From positions 3,904 through 67,903 of the IMG/VR virus record IMGVR_UViG_3300049217_000117: 64,000 nt of DNA, one strand, 5' to 3'. The stretch comes from a virus. How positions within the stretch are numbered: the stretch's first letter is position 1; the number at the start of each line of letters is the position of its first letter. Below the pieces are notes generated by a model that saw only the letters and a program-made list of their open reading frames with translations, searched no databases and had not been told where the DNA came from. This document shows, piece after piece, positions 3,443-56,708 of this stretch. The position numbers and the translations under genes are program-made.

Positions 3443-4153
3443 ATGAAAAAATGCAAAGACTGTGAAGAATACAAGTCAGAGGAACTATTCGGAAAAAATT
3501 CCGCTATGGCCGACGGGCTTGGCTTCTATTGCAAGCCCTGTAAAAAGAAGAGAGATAGGCGCGATTATCAAAAACACAGAGAGGTAAGGTTGAAATCTGT
3601 TGCTAATTATAGGCTAGAAAATCCAGAAAAAGTAAAAGAATCCAAGAAAAAAGAGTATATAACCAATAAAGACAAGTATATAACCAATAAAGACAAGTAT
3701 ATAACCAATAAAGACAAGTATTTAAACAGAAGCAAGACTTATTACGAAGCCAATAGAACGCGAGTGCTTGCTGAGAATAAGGCTAAACGTGAATCGGACC
3801 CCGATTACTATAAGGGCCGGTATAGGTACGTGAAAACCAAGAGCGCTCAAGATCCTGGTTTCAGGGCCATATTAAATACCAGGCAGAGGGTGGCCCAGTT
3901 TATGGGATCAAAACCGATTAAATACTCCAAGAAATTAGGATGTTCTAAAGAACAGTTTATGTTGCACATTGAATCCCTGTTTCAGCCTGGAATGACTTGG
4001 GAAAATTATGGAGAATGGGAAATAGATCACAAATACCCTCTTTCTGTGGCTTACGAAGAAGGACCAGAGCCTTTTAGGAAAGCCTGTCTTTATATGAATT
4101 TACAGCCATTATGGTTGGAACAAAATAGAAAGAAAAGCAATAAAATCTCGTGA
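3443..4153 (+). CDS. HNH-type homing endonuclease (FQPGMTWENYG family)
   Basis: N-terminal CxxC..CxxC; C-terminal FQPGMTWENYGEWEIDH...NLQPLW. Confidence 0.8.
   Translation: MKKCKDCEEYKSEELFGKNSAMADGLGFYCKPCKKKRDRRDYQKHREVRLKSVANYRLENPEKVKESKKKEYITNKDKYITNKDKYITNKDKYLNRSKTYYEANRTRVLAENKAKRESDPDYYKGRYRYVKTKSAQDPGFRAILNTRQRVAQFMGSKPIKYSKKLGCSKEQFMLHIESLFQPGMTWENYGEWEIDHKYPLSVAYEEGPEPFRKACLYMNLQPLWLEQNRKKSNKIS
3653..3721 (+). repeat. 21-bp tandem repeat x3 encoding (K/E)YITNKD
   Basis: AGTATATAACCAATAAAGACA repeated three times in frame. Confidence 0.95.
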
Positions 4154-8996: not shown

Positions 8997-10070
8997 TTAG
9001 ACTTCTGTACCGGAGATGGTAGAGTACACGTCCATGGCCTTTTTGTCTTCGTTCGTGCGAATGACCCTGATAGCAGAGCCTGTGCCGCTTTCCAGGAAGA
9101 CAAGCTCATCGAGATCGATGGAGATGTTCGGAGCGGCGGTGGAATTGAATCCGACCCATAAGGTGCTAAAGGCCACGCCATCAGCCGAAATTTGCACTTC
9201 GATTTTGAGTGCGCCAGATGCGCTAGCCCAAATTTTCTTGCCGTTGAAAGTCTTGAGAGCCGTAATGGTGTAGGTGTGGTTACTGGTTGCTCCAGCTGCT
9301 ACTGCCGCAACGGTATTGTAGTTGTTGACCGAGGTACCAACCAATGCGCTCGTGATCGTAACCGGGACCGGGTTCGTGCCAGAAACGTTTGCTCCGCCAA
9401 CCGCAAGGTTTGCGGCAACTCGAAGCGTCTGAGCGCCCGTTGCGCCGTTGTTGAAGTCGGCTGCGCCAGTAGCGTTACCGATCTGGGAGGCGACTCGCAA
9501 ACTTTGAGCGCCGATAGCGCCATAGCTGAAGTCGGCTGCGCCAGTAGCGTTACCGATCTGGGCAGCGGCACGAAGGGTCTGCGCACTAGCAGCGCCGAAG
9601 TTGAAGTCGGCTGCGCCAGTGGCATTGCCGATTTGAGCTGCGGTTCGGATAGTGTTTGCGCCAACAGTCCCGTAGTTCGTATCAACGGTGACAGGCAAAT
9701 TGGAGACGTGAACCAGGAGGCGTCCCGAGCTGTCAAGCTGGACAGCAGCCTGTTGTCCAGTGGTCAGAGTCGGAAGAACAGTGTTGAACTGGCCACCGAT
9801 AAGGTCAGAGAAATTTGCGGCGGTGCCGGGGGAAACCGGACCAGCACTCTGACTGTTGACCTGAAGGGCCTGGACACCGCCATTGGTCAGTGTAGTAACC
9901 GCAGAGCCCGCAGCGTCTTTAATAATACTGGACTGGCTACCGAAGGTGTCCACCGACGCCTGCTGCGTGGTGGGATTGGTAGCGTCACCTAACTTGATAA
10001 TCGCGTCTTCGTAAACCGCCTGGCCAGTTAATTCTGTTCTGATTGGTAGTGCTGAATTGAAATCACTCAT
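8997..10070 (-). CDS. repeat-containing fibre-like virion protein
   Basis: About four 22-aa repeats (QIGNATGAADF.YG..GAQTLR). Confidence 0.65.
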   Translation of the reverse strand: MSDFNSALPIRTELTGQAVYEDAIIKLGDATNPTTQQASVDTFGSQSSIIKDAAGSAVTTLTNGGVQALQVNSQSAGPVSPGTAANFSDLIGGQFNTVLPTLTTGQQAAVQLDSSGRLLVHVSNLPVTVDTNYGTVGANTIRTAAQIGNATGAADFNFGAASAQTLRAAAQIGNATGAADFSYGAIGAQSLRVASQIGNATGAADFNNGATGAQTLRVAANLAVGGANVSGTNPVPVTITSALVGTSVNNYNTVAAVAAGATSNHTYTITALKTFNGKKIWASASGALKIEVQISADGVAFSTLWVGFNSTAAPNISIDLDELVFLESGTGSAIRVIRTNEDKKAMDVYSTISGTEV

Positions 10071-10299: not shown

Positions 10300-11187
10300 T
10301 TATGCGATTTCCAAGACTTGAATTCTTCCTTCAAAATCACCAACATATGGACTGTTATGAAGGACTTTTACAGTCACCTGATCCCCAGGGGCCAAGACCA
10401 CCCCGTCGCTGCCTCCGGTGATGAATTCGAAATACTCACTGAGCGAACTTCCGTAGAAAGTCCTGCGCGTGTCTATCTGCGCTGCGTTAATGAAAACGGT
10501 CCATTTTGCGATATTTTCGCCGGAAACCGAGATGCGTTGCAGGACGCCACTGGTTTTGATCAAAGGCAGCGTGTATTGAACGACGGTAGTCGTGGCCCCA
10601 GATACGACGGCGTTTGCTTCAGCATACCTATTTACCACGGTATTACCGGCCACCGGGGTGTTGATGATGTTAACGTTGATCGAACCATCGGCATTGGGCT
10701 CAATGGTGTTTCCATTGGTGCCGTGAATAACCACGTCGCCGATACTAATTGTGCCATCGAAAGCAATTGGAAGAGGGTTGTTGGCGTCGTAGAAATTGCC
10801 ATACTGATCGACAAAGATCACTCTGTCAGCTACGACGGGATCGGCTTCGTAGACAGCTCTGTAGTGGTCGTCAGGAGACGGATTAGCCTTCTTATCCTGC
10901 GATTCAGCGCCAATGACGGCTCCAGAGGCCACGGTCCAGGTGGAGATGTCCAAAGGCTTCCAGGAGGCTATATTGTTGTCTATAAGGCCAACCACGAGCG
11001 TGGTGGACGAAAGGACGCGTTTGACCTGGACAGGAAGGGTCGCACCGGCAGTGTTTTTGAGGTAGGCGGACTGTTTTACTCGGAAACCGGCAGTGTTAGC
11101 CAGAGTGATTTGGCCGAAGATGTTTCCATCAGCTGTAAAGGCTTGCGGGGACACCGCTGCCCAATTCTTCTCAAATGCCATGCCCAA
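10300..11187 (-). CDS. virion structural protein
   Basis: Beta-rich ORF in late operon. Confidence 0.6.
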   Translation of the reverse strand: MGMAFEKNWAAVSPQAFTADGNIFGQITLANTAGFRVKQSAYLKNTAGATLPVQVKRVLSSTTLVVGLIDNNIASWKPLDISTWTVASGAVIGAESQDKKANPSPDDHYRAVYEADPVVADRVIFVDQYGNFYDANNPLPIAFDGTISIGDVVIHGTNGNTIEPNADGSINVNIINTPVAGNTVVNRYAEANAVVSGATTTVVQYTLPLIKTSGVLQRISVSGENIAKWTVFINAAQIDTRRTFYGSSLSEYFEFITGGSDGVVLAPGDQVTVKVLHNSPYVGDFEGRIQVLEIA

Positions 11188-11250
11188 TCCTCTGAAATCC
11201 TTAGCCTTCTAAGGAAACCGTGCTAGCCATCTAGCTGGATACTATAAAGA

Positions 11251-11601
11251 TTACGGTTTCTTCAAGTAGTCCTTATTCAAGAAAGTCTTCAGTCTATGGC
11301 AATTTGCACACATTGTTTTGAGATTTGAAGGATCGTTATTCTCATGATTTCCGTCAATATGGTCAACATCTAGCTGACTTGGATGAACTGGAATAAAAGA
11401 ACAGATTTCGCAGCGGTCCTTTCTATATTTCAAGTAGGGACTTTTTCGAAGTCTTTTGATCGCACCTCTTTTTTGATCGTTTTTCCTAACACAAGTTTTA
11501 CACCACTGATGATGTCCGTCCTTTCTAGTCCTGTTTTTAGTGAAGGAAGAGAGGGGCTGTGGGTTAAATTCAGGACAATTTGGTCTTTGACAATTCTTCA
11601 T
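11251..11601 (-). CDS. HNH homing endonuclease
   Basis: LDVDHIDGNHENNDPSNLKTMCANCH. Confidence 0.85.
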   Translation of the reverse strand: MKNCQRPNCPEFNPQPLSSFTKNRTRKDGHHQWCKTCVRKNDQKRGAIKRLRKSPYLKYRKDRCEICSFIPVHPSQLDVDHIDGNHENNDPSNLKTMCANCHRLKTFLNKDYLKKP

Positions 11602-11634
11602 TTTATGAAGATTGTGGCTGGACTGGCTGGATTA

Positions 11635-11704
11635 TGGCTGCGCAGGTTGGACTCGAACCATTCTGGTTAACAGCCAGCCGCTCTACCATTGGAGCTACTG
11701 CGCA
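11635..11704 (-). tRNA. tRNA-Asn(GTT), shortened (70 nt)
   Basis: Acceptor TGCGCAG/CTGCGCA, CT-GTT-AA loop, encoded CCA; variable region missing. Confidence 0.75.
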
Positions 11705-11714
11705 TCGTAAATTT

Positions 11715-11789
11715 TGGTATTGCCTACGGGTATCGATCCCGTTTTCCCTGGGTGAAAGCCAGGCGTCCTAGCCAGTAGACGAAGGCAAT
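11715..11789 (-). tRNA. tRNA-Glu(TTC)
   Basis: Cloverleaf with CCTGG-CTTTCAC-CCAGG anticodon arm and CCA. Confidence 0.9.
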
Positions 11790-11791
11790 TC

Positions 11792-11877
11792 TGGTGCTCC
11801 CGGAAGGATTTGAACCTTCATGCCCTTGCGAGCGCTGCGTTCTAAGCGCAGTGTGTCTGCCTTTCCACCACGGGAGC
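11792..11877 (-). tRNA. tRNA-Leu(TAG)
   Basis: CTGCG-CTTAGAA-CGCAG, long variable arm, GGTTCAAATCC, CCA. Confidence 0.92.
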
Positions 11878-11883
11878 AAAAAT

Positions 11884-11960
11884 TGGTCAGGAGAGAGGGA
11901 TTCGGACCCTCATCAGCGGGTTCACAGCCTGCGGTTTTAGCCACTTAAACTATCTCCTAC
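11884..11960 (-). tRNA. tRNA-His(GTG)
   Basis: CTGTGAA anticodon loop, CCA; G-1 with A73; T-loop reads TCCGAAT. Confidence 0.85.
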
Positions 11961-11961
11961 T

Positions 11962-12037
11962 TGGCAGCGCGTCAGGGAATCGAACCCTATAGATTCCGGT
12001 TTCAAAGACCGTAGTTTTACCACTAAACTACCGCGCT
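11962..12037 (-). tRNA. tRNA-Gln(TTG)
   Basis: CGGT-CTTTGAA-ACCG, GGTTCGATTCC, CCA. Confidence 0.85.
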
Positions 12038-12120
12038 ATATCTTTTTCTCGATTCTGGGCCGTTGGCGTGGTCCGGTCGCCCGTTTAACCAAGGCGGAAA
12101 CCTTGGCACCTTTATCGAAG

Positions 12121-12206
12121 TCGAGGAGGAGGGAGTTGAGCCCCCGAGGCCCAATTAAGGACGACGGTTTTACAGACCGTTGTGACCAGCCGACAGTCAC
12201 CTCTCC
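12121..12206 (-). tRNA. tRNA-Tyr(GTA)-like, atypical acceptor stem and no encoded CCA
   Basis: ACGGT-CTGTAAA-ACCGT arm, long variable arm, T-arm GGGGG-CTCAACT-CCCTC. Confidence 0.6.
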
Positions 12207-12218
12207 AAGCTTGTTGAA

Positions 12219-12296
12219 TGGTATGGTAGGAGGGATTTGAACCCTCGACCCCTTGATCCCAAATCAAGTGCGCTGACCAGACTGCGCTACTACCAT
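12219..12296 (-). tRNA. tRNA-Pro(TGG)
   Basis: ATGGTAG/CTACCAT acceptor, TTTGGGA loop, CCA. Confidence 0.92.
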
Positions 12297-12320
12297 CTTG
12301 TTGTCGCTCTTGCGACGATC

Positions 12321-12563
12321 TTAAAATCTCTCCCTGCTTCCGCTTTTGATGTCGGATGCTTTTCGTTGATTGAGGTAATCCCTTTCTAGGTCATGCGCTT
12401 CATCCTTAGGTATACGCATAGACCCGACTTCGATCACCTTCCACCATTGGCCAGGGCAATCCTCTAGCGTGACGCTGAAGCCTACCTTCGCACCTCGTTC
12501 CTCGATCCATCCGACGGTTTGAGTATTGCCTGACTGTAAAACGCACTGTTTGTAAAATTCCAT
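12321..12563 (-). CDS. hypothetical protein, first gene of the tRNA operon
   Basis: GAGG RBS; 80 aa. Confidence 0.65.
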   Translation of the reverse strand: MEFYKQCVLQSGNTQTVGWIEERGAKVGFSVTLEDCPGQWWKVIEVGSMRIPKDEAHDLERDYLNQRKASDIKSGSRERF

Positions 12564-12585
12564 AAAACTTGACCTCTAGAAACGC

Positions 12586-12616
12586 AAAAAGCCCTCGGTC
12601 TTTCGACGGAGGGCTT
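12586..12616 (-). terminator. intrinsic terminator (attenuator)
   Basis: AAGCCCTCCGTC-GAAA-GACCGAGGGCTT followed by TTT on the minus strand. Confidence 0.85.
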
Positions 12617-12644
12617 GGTTCAATTCGAAATGGTGAACGCAGCC

Positions 12645-12704
12645 CTACATCAGAGGTTCCTCTTGGTTATTATCGAGATGTTGCGGGCGATAGTTCGTTT
12701 TCAT
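12645..12704 (-). CDS. leader peptide MKTNYRPQHLDNNQEEPLM
   Basis: 19-codon ORF between a promoter and the terminator; hand-translated. Confidence 0.75.
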   Translation of the reverse strand: MKTNYRPQHLDNNQEEPLM

Positions 12705-12710
12705 AAAATT

Positions 12711-12738
12711 ACTCTATCATAGAGATTAGGTCTTGCAA
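12711..12738 (-). promoter_or_regulatory. sigma70-like promoter for leader and tRNA operon
   Basis: TTGCAA-N16-TAGAGT with extended TG, 6 nt before the leader ATG. Confidence 0.55.
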
Positions 12739-12768
12739 CAAAATAATATCGTGTTAATCTTAGTAAGG

Positions 12769-13371
12769 ATGAAGAGATGCTCAAGATGTAAAGAAAACAA
12801 GGATACTGTGTTTTTTGGCAAAAGACCTGCTGCTAGGGATGGCTTTCGTTCGGAATGTAATACCTGCCGATATTTGTCGGAAAAATCAATTAAAGCTGCC
12901 TATAGGGCCAAAAACAAGAGTAAAATCAAGGAGTATAGATCTAAATATTATTCTAGTAATAAAATTGTGGAAAATGTCAAATCCAAAGAGTATAAGTCTT
13001 CAAAACAATTGGAGATAAGAGAATACAACAGGGAATACTCTAAGAAAAGATTAATCGAAGATCCTTTGTTTAGGCTCAGATCGAATATTAGAAAAAGAAT
13101 TAACAAAGAGTTGAGAAAGAGTAGATGGAATAAAAATAACTCTTTGAGTCATTATTTAGGATGCTCTTTGGAAGAGTTGAAAAAATATCTGGAATCTAAG
13201 TTTCAGCCAGGCATGACATGGGAAAACCACGGTTTGTACGGGTGGCACGTAGACCATATAGTGCCGCTATCAAAAGCAAAAAGTGAGAAAGAACTTTACG
13301 CTCTTTCTCACTTTTCAAATTTACAGCCTTTGTGGGCAGCGCAAAATCTCCTAAAAGGAGATAAAGTCTAG
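12769..13371 (+). CDS. HNH-type homing endonuclease (FQPGMTWEN family)
   Basis: FQPGMTWENHG..WHVDHIVPLS...NLQPLW. Confidence 0.8.
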   Translation: MKRCSRCKENKDTVFFGKRPAARDGFRSECNTCRYLSEKSIKAAYRAKNKSKIKEYRSKYYSSNKIVENVKSKEYKSSKQLEIREYNREYSKKRLIEDPLFRLRSNIRKRINKELRKSRWNKNNSLSHYLGCSLEELKKYLESKFQPGMTWENHGLYGWHVDHIVPLSKAKSEKELYALSHFSNLQPLWAAQNLLKGDKV

Positions 13372-13373
13372 CG

Positions 13374-13823
13374 TTATGGCAGACTTACGGCGCCTCCCTC
13401 GTCTTGATCTCCCGCCTCGTCGCTGAGTCTGAGGCCCGTATAATTGATCGTGATACGGCTCGTAGCGCGAGCATTGTGATTGCCATTGTACGAGTTAGGC
13501 ACGCACCCGATAGCCGTCAGAATGGTTTGGCCCGACTGACGATCAACGATCGCGAGGGTCACACCGTCCAGGGTCAGAAGATCCTGGAGTTTCGGAACTG
13601 CGGGAAGGACGTGAGGCCCTTGACCAACGACTCGGAAGCCACCACAAGAAATGGTAACTGCCTCGTAGGAGGTAGGAGTGATTTCGTCTGGGCTGTAACG
13701 GCCAAGAAGATGAATCGGCTCCGTACCGATGTTCATGTTGTACGTGCAGGTTTCATAGATCCCGACCAACTTGTTGTTGACGTAGATCTTTGCTCTTGCA
13801 CCGGTTAAAACTTTCGATGGCAT
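13374..13823 (-). CDS. tail tube protein
   Basis: 149 aa immediately downstream of the sheath; tube-like motifs. Confidence 0.75.
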   Translation of the reverse strand: MPSKVLTGARAKIYVNNKLVGIYETCTYNMNIGTEPIHLLGRYSPDEITPTSYEAVTISCGGFRVVGQGPHVLPAVPKLQDLLTLDGVTLAIVDRQSGQTILTAIGCVPNSYNGNHNARATSRITINYTGLRLSDEAGDQDEGGAVSLP

Positions 13824-37113: not shown

Positions 37114-37140
37114 TCTTTTCCAGCTATGATATAGTTCTGT

Positions 37141-48621: not shown

Positions 48622-50391
48622 TTAAGGCCTCTCGTTTGCTTCGTTAGTAAACTGGTTTGGGTTTTCCACCGATCGGGTGAATTCAGAGTCCAGTCTGGCC
48701 TCCGAGCGTTCAAAAACATCGTCACGGGGATGACATACCATGCCGCCCATGGTTCCAAGGACATTGGCGATGCTGACAGCATTGCTCAGTGACTCGGACA
48801 CCGCTTTCGTGGCATCAAACAGGCCAAGCTCCTCTGCTTTACCGTAGACCTGATTTTCCACGTCATAAACGACTTCTGGATCATTGATCAGGGTATGAAG
48901 GACATCCTCAATTTCATCTTTGCTATAGCCAGCATTTTCCAGGAGTCTGTTGGGGAGCGATAGCAGGGAAGGCATCAGCACTTCTCTGGCTGGATCGTTC
49001 GTTTCAAGCTCTTGTGCGATTTTGATAGCCATATCTATCGCGAGCCTGCATCCACCGGGTAGAGCACCGTAACCAATAGCAGAACGAACGGCACACACGG
49101 CGTCTTCGCAACGATCGTGGGCTTCTTTAAGCTCACCGTTTGATCCACCATAGATGGTTAACTTAGCGATACCGTTGGTAATTTTACCAATACGCTCTTC
49201 GAGCATTAGCCTCTCGGCTTGACTCTCAGCGCTGTTCATCTGAGTCTTAAGCTGTTCGGCTCGTACTTCTACATTCACTGGATCGGGATTGCCGACCACA
49301 GTGGAACGGAAGCGTGAGGCCTCGAAACTTTCCATGCTGCTTCCCAGATCGCTAGCCGTTGCCCGGCTGACCTGATCTTTTAAGCCGAAGACCTTGGCGC
49401 CAGTGAAAGCGGCCAGGTCGTACAGGAAATGGGTCTGACTGTTCAGGAACTGAGCCATAGGGGTGATCATCGGAAGGATGTTCATGGTCCCTGGGTCGCT
49501 GAAGTTGAATGCGAACTGCGTCAAAACACTCTCGCTGAACCCATGAGCGAAGATCACGATGTTCTTGAAATCGGAATCTCCGTTGACGTACTTCTGTCCG
49601 CACTGAGCAAGCAACGAATCTATAGATACAAGATCGTTCAGGTTTCCATCGTACAGGAGGAACAGGGGCTTTTCCAGATAACAGCGTTGATTGCCTTGGT
49701 CATTGATGAAAGCTACGTGCAGCTTACCAATACTTTCTTCCAGACCCATGGGGATCGGGAAGCCGTCAATACGCTGGACTTTGTATGCTTTCTTACCGCT
49801 CAGCTCTCGGATTGTAACGTGAGAACTGTCCCCGTAACCGATTTGCTCGAACGCGTCGATTACGGCGGCGGCCATATCATCATCCCCGTTGGCGGAAATC
49901 TTGGCGACCATCTTCAAAAGCTTCTGATTCTCCTCTCCGATCTTGATAGATCGAGATTTGATATACGGCATCAACACCTTCTCGGTGATCTCACTGATCC
50001 GGCGCGTAGCTTTTTGAGGGCTGTACTTTGGATTTTTTTCGCAGAAGTCAAAAAGGTTCTGAATAATAGAGTAGGCTAGTACAGTAGCGGTCGTAGTTCC
50101 GTCACCGGCTTCCGTAGCAGTTCGCTGCGCAACGTCACGCGTGCTCTCAATTATTAAATGCTCATAAGCATCATTAGAACCTAGAGATTTAAAAATTGTT
50201 ACTCCGTCTTTGGTGAGTTTGTTCGGAATACCTGGGTAGTCGGACTCGATCATAGTTACGCGTCCACCAGGACCAAGAGACGAGCCAACGATATCTGACA
50301 CTTTTCTCATGGTGTCTAAAACTTTGTTTTTTAGGAATTTTTGATCACATGCAAAAATTTTTGGGGCTGACTTAGCTTTACGAGCTGACAT
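48622..50391 (-). CDS. groEL: GroEL-like chaperonin
   Basis: SLGPGG, TKDGVT, AGDGTTTATVLA, EDAVCA, PGG. Confidence 0.92.
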   Translation of the reverse strand: MSARKAKSAPKIFACDQKFLKNKVLDTMRKVSDIVGSSLGPGGRVTMIESDYPGIPNKLTKDGVTIFKSLGSNDAYEHLIIESTRDVAQRTATEAGDGTTTATVLAYSIIQNLFDFCEKNPKYSPQKATRRISEITEKVLMPYIKSRSIKIGEENQKLLKMVAKISANGDDDMAAAVIDAFEQIGYGDSSHVTIRELSGKKAYKVQRIDGFPIPMGLEESIGKLHVAFINDQGNQRCYLEKPLFLLYDGNLNDLVSIDSLLAQCGQKYVNGDSDFKNIVIFAHGFSESVLTQFAFNFSDPGTMNILPMITPMAQFLNSQTHFLYDLAAFTGAKVFGLKDQVSRATASDLGSSMESFEASRFRSTVVGNPDPVNVEVRAEQLKTQMNSAESQAERLMLEERIGKITNGIAKLTIYGGSNGELKEAHDRCEDAVCAVRSAIGYGALPGGCRLAIDMAIKIAQELETNDPAREVLMPSLLSLPNRLLENAGYSKDEIEDVLHTLINDPEVVYDVENQVYGKAEELGLFDATKAVSESLSNAVSIANVLGTMGGMVCHPRDDVFERSEARLDSEFTRSVENPNQFTNEANERP

Positions 50392-56302: not shown

Positions 56303-56708
56303 CGAGAAGGGAAAAGAAGTCAAAGAAATCCTGAAGAAGATGGCGCAATTCTCGATTTCCAACAACCAAATCAACGAGATACAGCAGCAGAATCTCAAGG
56401 CTTACCCCTTTGTCTTTTTCAACGGCGTCAAGTCTGCGAAGATCGACTACGACCTCACAAACCACAGCAAGGTCGAGTATGACACCAATCCAAAGACTCT
56501 GGATATTGTGTATAAGTTCGGAAAACCTCAGACCGAAAATTTCAAAATTTCCTATGATATAGAGATTGATGAGTCCGCGTCGAATCCGCATCTAGAAAAG
56601 CGGTTCGAGGCCCTTGAGAGGGCTATTCACACTCTTTTCTGGAAGGGTATACCCCTAGAAGTTCTGTTCAATGGTCTAAGCGTCTATTCGAGTAAGAGAA
56701 ATGACTGA
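56295..56708 (+). CDS. hypothetical protein
   Basis: AGGAG RBS; TTG start. Confidence 0.65.
   Translation: MSDEKGKEVKEILKKMAQFSISNNQINEIQQQNLKAYPFVFFNGVKSAKIDYDLTNHSKVEYDTNPKTLDIVYKFGKPQTENFKISYDIEIDESASNPHLEKRFEALERAIHTLFWKGIPLEVLFNGLSVYSSKRND

Follow-up and report, generated by a model that had tools for sequence, protein, structure and literature searches.

A candidate leader-peptide attenuator ahead of a tRNA array in a phage genome

Introduction

In the enterobacterial trp, his, thr and ilv operons, a short leader open reading frame (ORF), three alternative RNA pairings (1:2, 2:3 and 3:4) and a terminator lie ahead of the structural genes. The leader-peptide attenuator of Escherichia coli pheST, whose leader pheM carries a run of phenylalanine codons, controls phenylalanyl-tRNA synthetase. 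T-box riboswitches, 200-300 nucleotides (nt) long and marked by conserved boxes, bind uncharged transfer RNA (tRNA) directly and need no translation. To our knowledge, leader-peptide attenuation has been described for amino-acid biosynthesis, synthetase and resistance genes, and not for tRNA genes. Here we analyze a 64,000-nt stretch of DNA from the IMG/VR virus record IMGVR_UViG_3300049217_000117 (hereafter the window), in which a self-contained element of about 150 nt precedes a gene for an 80-residue protein and seven tRNA genes. Its sequence suggests that it probably functions as a translation-coupled (leader-peptide) transcription attenuator gating these eight genes.

Like the trp, his, thr and ilv attenuators, the phage element combines a short leader ORF, the three pairings and a terminator with a leader stop codon placed such that a terminating ribosome could mask the second pairing region, and like thr and ilv it draws several amino acids into one leader, as in multivalent attenuation. 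Unlike those systems, it is borne by a phage and known here from sequence alone, its output would be tRNA genes and a small protein, its leader uses seven isotypes once to three times each with no run of a single codon, and its start is probably leaderless. The nearest functional analogue is pheST, likewise an attenuator of a component of the translation machinery that reads how much charged tRNA is at hand; in the phage, the genes under control would be those for tRNAs and not for a synthetase. With T-boxes the element would share a terminator/antiterminator switch tied to tRNA status. Unlike them it has no Rfam match of that kind: a cmscan search of positions 11000-13500 at E up to 1 returned tRNA matches and one antisense chance match, and neither a T-box nor any other cis-regulatory family.

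Leaderless polycysteine short ORFs of mycobacteria are reported to sense one amino acid, and ribosome pausing on them to unmask a ribosome-binding site (Canestrari et al., 10.1101/834739). The phage element is similar in having a leaderless short ORF first in its operon and in the proposed pausing of ribosomes on sensory codons; it differs in using an intrinsic terminator as the switch and in its mixed codons. Phage tRNA arrays have been presented (for example, PMC11464382) as a means of making good the host tRNAs that defence nucleases cleave, a rationale for a phage needing its own tRNAs when those of the host fail. We found no report of such defence-replacement tRNAs being switched on by a leader-peptide sensor. 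The full-text literature searched, which lacks most subscription journals, likewise yielded no leader-peptide attenuator on tRNA genes of any phage or cell.

Results

Layout of the locus

The viral contig is 67.9 kilobases (kb) long, with an estimated completeness of 41%, and the window covers 64 kb of it. A single unit, wholly on the minus strand, comprises in order a promoter, a leader ORF, an intrinsic terminator, the 80-residue ORF and tRNA genes for Pro, Tyr, Gln, His, Leu, Glu and Asn, the array ending at 11638. A preliminary description of this DNA, made from its letters alone, had given the same layout, which we confirm in every material point, together with its translation of the leader into 19 codons.

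By direct reading, the leader ORF (12645-12704; 19 codons plus TAG) extends from an ATG at 12704-12702 to a TAG at 12647-12645 and lies in the only one of the three frames that is open; no longer version is possible, since a TAG stands in frame at 12716-12714. The intrinsic terminator predicted by folding (12586-12616) consists of a GC-rich hairpin at 12616-12589, with 11 pairs, one C/C mismatch, a GAAA loop and a stability of -17.9 kcal/mol, and of a T5 run that reaches 12586. Only 22 nt separate the T-run from the ATG of the 80-residue ORF (12321-12563), the first gene of the operon, and thus there is no room for a separate promoter. Minus-strand transcription arriving from the upstream structural genes runs into a predicted terminator at 13317-13277 and an HNH gene on the opposite strand. 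Given both circumstances, the 80-residue ORF, and probably the tRNAs, would depend on read-through of the terminator.

Alternative pairings in the leader RNA

Three segments of the leader RNA can engage in mutually competing helices. Region 1 (12677-12696; codons 3-10, nt 9-28) pairs with region 2 when only the first 70-80 nt are folded. Region 2, GATGTAGGGCTGCGTTCA (12634-12651; nt 54-71), can pair with region 1 or region 3 and overlaps the final sense codon and stop codon of the leader, so that a terminating ribosome would mask it. Region 3 (12605-12622) joins TGAAC to the 5' arm of the terminator and forms the antiterminator with region 2 in truncated folds. All three classical pairings are therefore possible: 1:2, 2:3 (antiterminator) and 3:4 (terminator).

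Of 200 shuffled sequences, 199 fold less well than the 130-nt leader RNA (z -2.89). Pairing 1:2 is worth -14.7 to -16.2 kcal/mol in the first 70-80 nt and persists within the full-length minimum-energy fold, which combines 1:2 with 3:4 at -34.6 kcal/mol. Once region 3 is present and the 3' arm of the terminator absent, the antiterminator forms with 15 pairs at -22 kcal/mol, with or without masking of the first 30-54 nt in imitation of a ribosome; with the 3' arm kept from pairing, the antiterminator state as a whole reaches -23.7 kcal/mol. When the upstream 45-60 nt were dinucleotide-shuffled for comparison, the antiterminator of the window scored P values of 0.004-0.02. The preliminary description had paired AGGGCT (12646-12641) with AGCCCT (12615-12610), added an inner helix of GTTCA (12638-12634) with TGAAC (12622-12618), and likened the whole to the geometry of a trp/his-type attenuator. 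Both helices are present and form in folds that end before, and so lack, the 3' arm of the terminator, and the likeness extends to a 1:2 pairing that the earlier account did not contain.

Recurrence of the element in two relatives

Protein-guided scans with the 80-residue ORF reached 35 metagenome, 7 viral and 5 genome loci. At only two of the scanned loci, designated L053 and L055, did a homologue of the leader accompany the ORF, whose orthologues there are 65% and 56% identical, respectively, to that of the window. L053 shares a 176.9-kb contig with loci L002, L041, L088 and L100; L055 lies on a contig of 9.4 kb. Four closer relatives of the 80-residue protein (P0002-P0005, 64-83% identical) are known as proteins only.

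L053 presents a 19-codon ORF whose stop overlaps region 2 and a 14-pair antiterminator that surpasses dinucleotide shuffles at P values of 0.002-0.04. In L055, the arrangement TTGACT-18-TAAAAT-5 nt-ATG introduces a 23-codon ORF. Terminator hairpins followed by a T-run are found in both, at -15.7 kcal/mol in L053 and -21.6 kcal/mol in L055, the latter with a different sequence; compared with the window, the hairpins carry two compensatory pairs in L053 (inner) and one in L055. Pairings resembling 1:2 appear in the folds of both relatives, and an antiterminator, mutually exclusive with the terminator, forms in truncated folds of all three sequences. When the antiterminator derived from the window is placed on a three-sequence MAFFT alignment, 69.8% of cells pair, versus 19-46% in slid registers.

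In the window, L053 and L055 alike, the leader frame alone is open, the other two carrying 2-4 stops, and the leader stop codon overlaps or adjoins region 2. The codons GAG GAA stand in frame in all three, 42, 39 and 51 nt from the ATG in the window, L053 and L055, respectively. The window and L055 share a 10-nt block, AAGAGGAACC, without a difference, and AGAGGAAC is common to all three.

The mode of translation initiation may differ among them. For the window a leaderless start is likely, for L055 possible. For L053 it is improbable, as a tRNA precedes that leader and AAGG stands 5 nt ahead of its ATG; situated about 100 nt past the shared promoter motif described below, after a probable tRNA-Ile, it is probably led by a Shine-Dalgarno sequence. 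In L055 the leader frame also continues without a stop to an upstream ATG that has an AGGAG Shine-Dalgarno sequence, giving a 65-residue ORF (1441-1638) with a hydrophobic N-terminus, no Pfam or PHROG match and a predicted sigma-70-type promoter inside it.

Wider searches added no further member. A terminator pattern scan of the viral collection returned 50 stretches, among which the only related one was the already-known contig, and a region-2 pattern scan returned 32, again with no member beyond it. In a blastn search of 50,697 phage records, 124 matched, none over 80% of the query and none on the leader; the matches were confined to HNH genes and tRNAs. Sequencing runs were searched as well, and no RNA run containing the sequence was listed. 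At a further locus, L056, a 26-codon ORF near 3770-3890 with a GGAGG Shine-Dalgarno sequence lies directly ahead of tRNA-Lys(TTT) and an 80-residue orthologue. It encodes 6 Lys and 6 Thr among the 25 residues after the start and is followed by no T-run terminator; it could be a leader of another kind or a small gene with no relation to the element.

A promoter motif placed at tRNA transcription units

A -35-like hexamer, TTGCAA (12733-12738, by direct reading), stands 16 nt from the -10 element, which an exact-motif search places within CTATGATAGAGT (12711-12722) as an extended -10 (TG-a-TAGAGT, 12719-12711). The two hexamers match the consensus at 8 of 12 positions. Six nucleotides lie between the extended -10 and the leader ATG, which begins at the seventh nucleotide after it, the geometry of a leaderless transcript, and we infer that transcription in the window starts at or beside the A of that ATG.

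The 12-mer CTATGATAnAGT has exactly two copies in the 64 kb, one in the leader promoter and one at 37124-37135 on the plus strand, 5 nt ahead of the mature 5' end (37141) of tRNA-Ala, the only other tRNA of the window. By chance, 0.55 matches with at most one mismatch would be expected. In the 20-kb relative locus L100, the 12-mer occurs once (9725-9736), just ahead of a probable tRNA-Ile. From these placements we take CTATGATAnAGT to be, in all probability, an extended -10 promoter specific to these phages, from which transcripts begin directly at the gene. Copies 5-7 nt ahead of the starts of tRNA-linked transcription units were observed in two related phages. One-mismatch copies lie at 50244-50255 (minus strand) and 56552-56563 (plus strand) of the window, both within long ORFs.

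Correspondence between the leader peptide and the tRNA set

The preliminary description had counted 13 of the 15 residues at codons 4-18 as belonging to the seven amino acids served by the array, with all seven represented. That count stands and corresponds to 13 of the 18 residues after Met1 (codons 2-19), the maximum that any seven-isotype set can attain on this peptide. By hand combinatorics, 21 of the 77,520 possible sets reach it. When isotype sets were drawn at random, with weights taken from isotype frequencies in 25 other phage arrays, a score of 13 had a P value of 3e-4; the 87 actual seven-tRNA windows in those arrays all score 9 of 18 or less, showing that phage arrays in general are not biased in the same way. 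Null models built on the proteome background and on mononucleotide shuffles gave P values of 6e-4 and 2e-3.

In L053, at least 15 downstream tRNAs represent 12 isotypes, and 15 of 18 leader residues fall within that set (P 0.02-0.08; 1665 of 125,970 sets, or 0.013, by hand combinatorics). Codon/anticodon pairs there include AGA/UCU, CGC/ACG, AAA/UUU, GAU/GUC and AGU/GCU. The L053 leader has no Gly or Ile codon, and the tRNA-Gly and probable tRNA-Ile of that locus lie upstream of the leader. L055 carries a single tRNA, for Glu, and 5 Glu codons among 22 (P 0.004-0.013), a figure that depends on the start codon chosen. An earlier proposal that the residues Y.PQHL follow gene order finds no counterpart in L053, and the resemblance is best taken as chance.

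The tRNA array, the 80-residue protein and their neighbours

Five of the seven claimed tRNAs are called by ARAGORN with default settings and by Rfam: tRNA-Pro (TGG; 12219-12296), tRNA-Gln (TTG; 11962-12037), tRNA-His (GTG; 11884-11959), tRNA-Leu (TAG; 11792-11877) and tRNA-Glu (TTC; 11715-11789). The remaining two are also borne out. An atypical tRNA-Tyr (GTA; 12120-12209) is recovered by relaxed ARAGORN, with a sub-threshold Rfam score and 88% identity to the tRNA-Tyr of L100. The tRNA-Asn (GTT; 11638-11704), missed by ARAGORN, scores 40.7 bits with Rfam; its anticodon was read by eye, and it is syntenic with the tRNA-Asn of L100. Between tRNA-Tyr and tRNA-Gln, an 82-nt spacer (12038-12119, minus strand) receives no tRNA call from either program and may be a remnant. 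Genes for tRNA-Asp, two tRNA-Arg, two tRNA-Lys and tRNA-Gln(CTG), all present in the syntenic L100 array, are missing from that of the window. The tRNA-Pro(TGG) of L053 (4268-4357) measures 87-90 nt, versus 78 nt in the window, a length that we judge unusual for a proline tRNA.

The 80-residue protein belongs to a family (phrog_25356) with an invariant C..WIEERGA..V core. In 26 of 45 mapped loci, a few of which are duplicate contigs, a tRNA gene lies on the same strand within 500 nt. The structural model is a small beta barrel with a C-terminal helix (pLDDT 75.5), and searches returned no Pfam match, no fold match in the PDB at E below 1 and no named Atlas cluster. The family may represent a tRNA-array accessory protein.

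HNH endonuclease genes lie on either side of the tRNA unit, at 12769-13371 on the plus strand and 11251-11601 on the minus strand. The downstream gene is syntenic with L100. The upstream, opposite-strand gene sits where L053 has tRNA-Gly and the probable tRNA-Ile, which points to an insertion event in which tRNAs were lost and the promoter came to lie beside the leader ATG.

Discussion

A proposed switch set by the speed of leader translation

The order and spacing of these elements, and an antiterminator that outperforms shuffled sequences in both the window and L053, count in favour of an attenuator, as does a promoter motif held in common with other tRNA transcription units of these phages. 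As we picture its operation, transcription would start at or beside the leader ATG. In the absence of a ribosome, region 1 would pair with region 2, the terminator helix 3:4 would form, and the transcript would end at 12586. A ribosome that reached the stop codon quickly would cover region 2, and the terminator would form again. A ribosome lingering over roughly codons 3-13 (T N Y R P Q H L D N N) would melt 1:2 and leave region 2 free to pair with the 5' arm of the terminator, and RNA polymerase would continue into the 80-residue ORF and the tRNAs. The signal would thus be the speed of leader translation. If the ribosome footprint is roughly taken to reach about 13 nt beyond the A site, AGGGCT would stay free for stalls as far as codon 13-15.

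What the leader might sense is a more doubtful matter than the switch itself. Since 13 of its 18 residues use isotypes supplied by the operon, the simplest interpretation has the supply of those tRNAs under negative feedback, and specific sensing of the encoded species is plausible, though less likely than not. At the same tentative level, the operon can be imagined as a tRNA homeostat, its leader acting as a multi-codon sensor of the availability of the tRNAs encoded downstream. Typical anticodon nuclease targets include tRNA-Tyr, tRNA-His, tRNA-Asn, tRNA-Gln and tRNA-Glu, all of which are in the set of the window. Scarcity or nuclease cleavage of host tRNA-Tyr, His, Asn, Gln, Glu, Pro or Leu would stall the leader ribosome and release replacement tRNAs together with the 80-residue protein; with supply restored, the operon would shut itself down. 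That anticodon nucleases provide the trigger, an example given in the preliminary description, is conjecture.

Competing explanations

Several results weigh against sensing by the leader and, in part, against attenuation altogether. The supposed match of leader codons to the tRNA set is unusual at the amino-acid level but does not hold at the codon level. A shuffle that preserves codon positions, and with them the 58% A at position 2, gives P values of 0.12 for the window and 0.27 for L053. By our own reading, Watson-Crick pairing with a phage anticodon holds for only 5 of the 13 matching codons. The Pro codons are CCG and CCT against anticodon UGG and the Leu codons CUC and CUG against UAG; UAU and CAU need a G:U wobble, and CTC is not read by UAG under standard wobble. 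Leader residues K, T, R, D and M have no tRNA in the operon. For K, R and D, this may reflect array decay, because the arrays are syntenic and that of the window is smaller than that of the L053 contig. The further expectation that leader composition co-varies with tRNA content in related phages could be checked in L053 and L055, where co-variation is weak: 17 leader codons of L055 lack a matching tRNA, and the longer start available there would dilute its Glu enrichment. A rare-codon design of the leader was considered and rejected, the leader codons being ordinary in the usage of the phage itself. The correspondence, partly replicated in relatives that are not independent, is suggestive, and chance at P of about 1e-3 is conceivable.

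The plainest competing account treats the element as an independent short transcription unit, encoding a small RNA or a 19-residue micropeptide, with a leaky terminator and constitutive read-through, the pairings and the codon match being incidental. We regard this as unlikely, yet as the most serious of the alternatives. The distance of about 120 nt from promoter to terminator is typical small-RNA anatomy, and the disappearance of the codon match under the position-preserving null fits an incidental resemblance. Covariation of the antiterminator is not significant, 164 of 500 shuffles reaching the score of a structure that was itself derived from the window; the L055 antiterminator is no better than chance (P 0.17-0.83); and the registers of the antiterminator partly differ among the window, L053 and L055, the three sequences on which the comparative tests rest and which share ancestry. 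Other phage tRNA arrays that were scanned hold ordinary gene-end terminators only and nothing comparable. A generic sigma-70 promoter and terminator scan lists neither the promoter, left out because only 8 of its 12 hexamer positions match, nor the terminator. Finally, the scan behind the finding spans very many windows, and a coincidence at P of about 1e-3 is expected somewhere. A plain insulator terminator would, however, need none of the features that recur here: region 2 lies at the leader stop codon in all three sequences, the leader frame is kept across indels as the sole open frame, the antiterminator beats shuffles in two of the three sequences, and region 1 also pairs with region 2.

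A second account keeps the attenuator but has it driven by a trans-acting factor, either the 80-residue protein autoregulating its synthesis through AGAGGAAC or uncharged tRNA, as in a T-box. Identity of AAGAGGAACC between the window and L055, and of AGAGGAAC among all three, amid leaders that have otherwise diverged, is what a binding site might leave, and the first gene of the operon encodes a small, beta-rich protein that travels with tRNA arrays. Against this, Rfam yields no T-box or other match at E up to 1, the PDB nothing at E below 1 for the protein model, the family mostly occurs without the leader (three leaders only among the orthologue loci examined), and the conserved block, as codons would be, is kept in frame as GAG GAA by each of the three sequences. 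We consider control by such a factor highly improbable. A translation-coupled attenuator gating the 80-residue gene and the seven tRNA genes is likely, and is the account that we favour.

Implications for phage tRNA arrays

If the leader does sense the availability of the tRNAs encoded downstream, the element would be the first known leader-peptide attenuator of tRNA genes, and it would act in counter-defence by detecting the damage directly. Confirmation of the attenuator would mean that phages regulate tRNA arrays by direct feedback from the ribosome, and would implicate the 80-residue array-associated protein in the same response. It would also establish a testable link between host defences that target tRNA and the expression of phage tRNAs.
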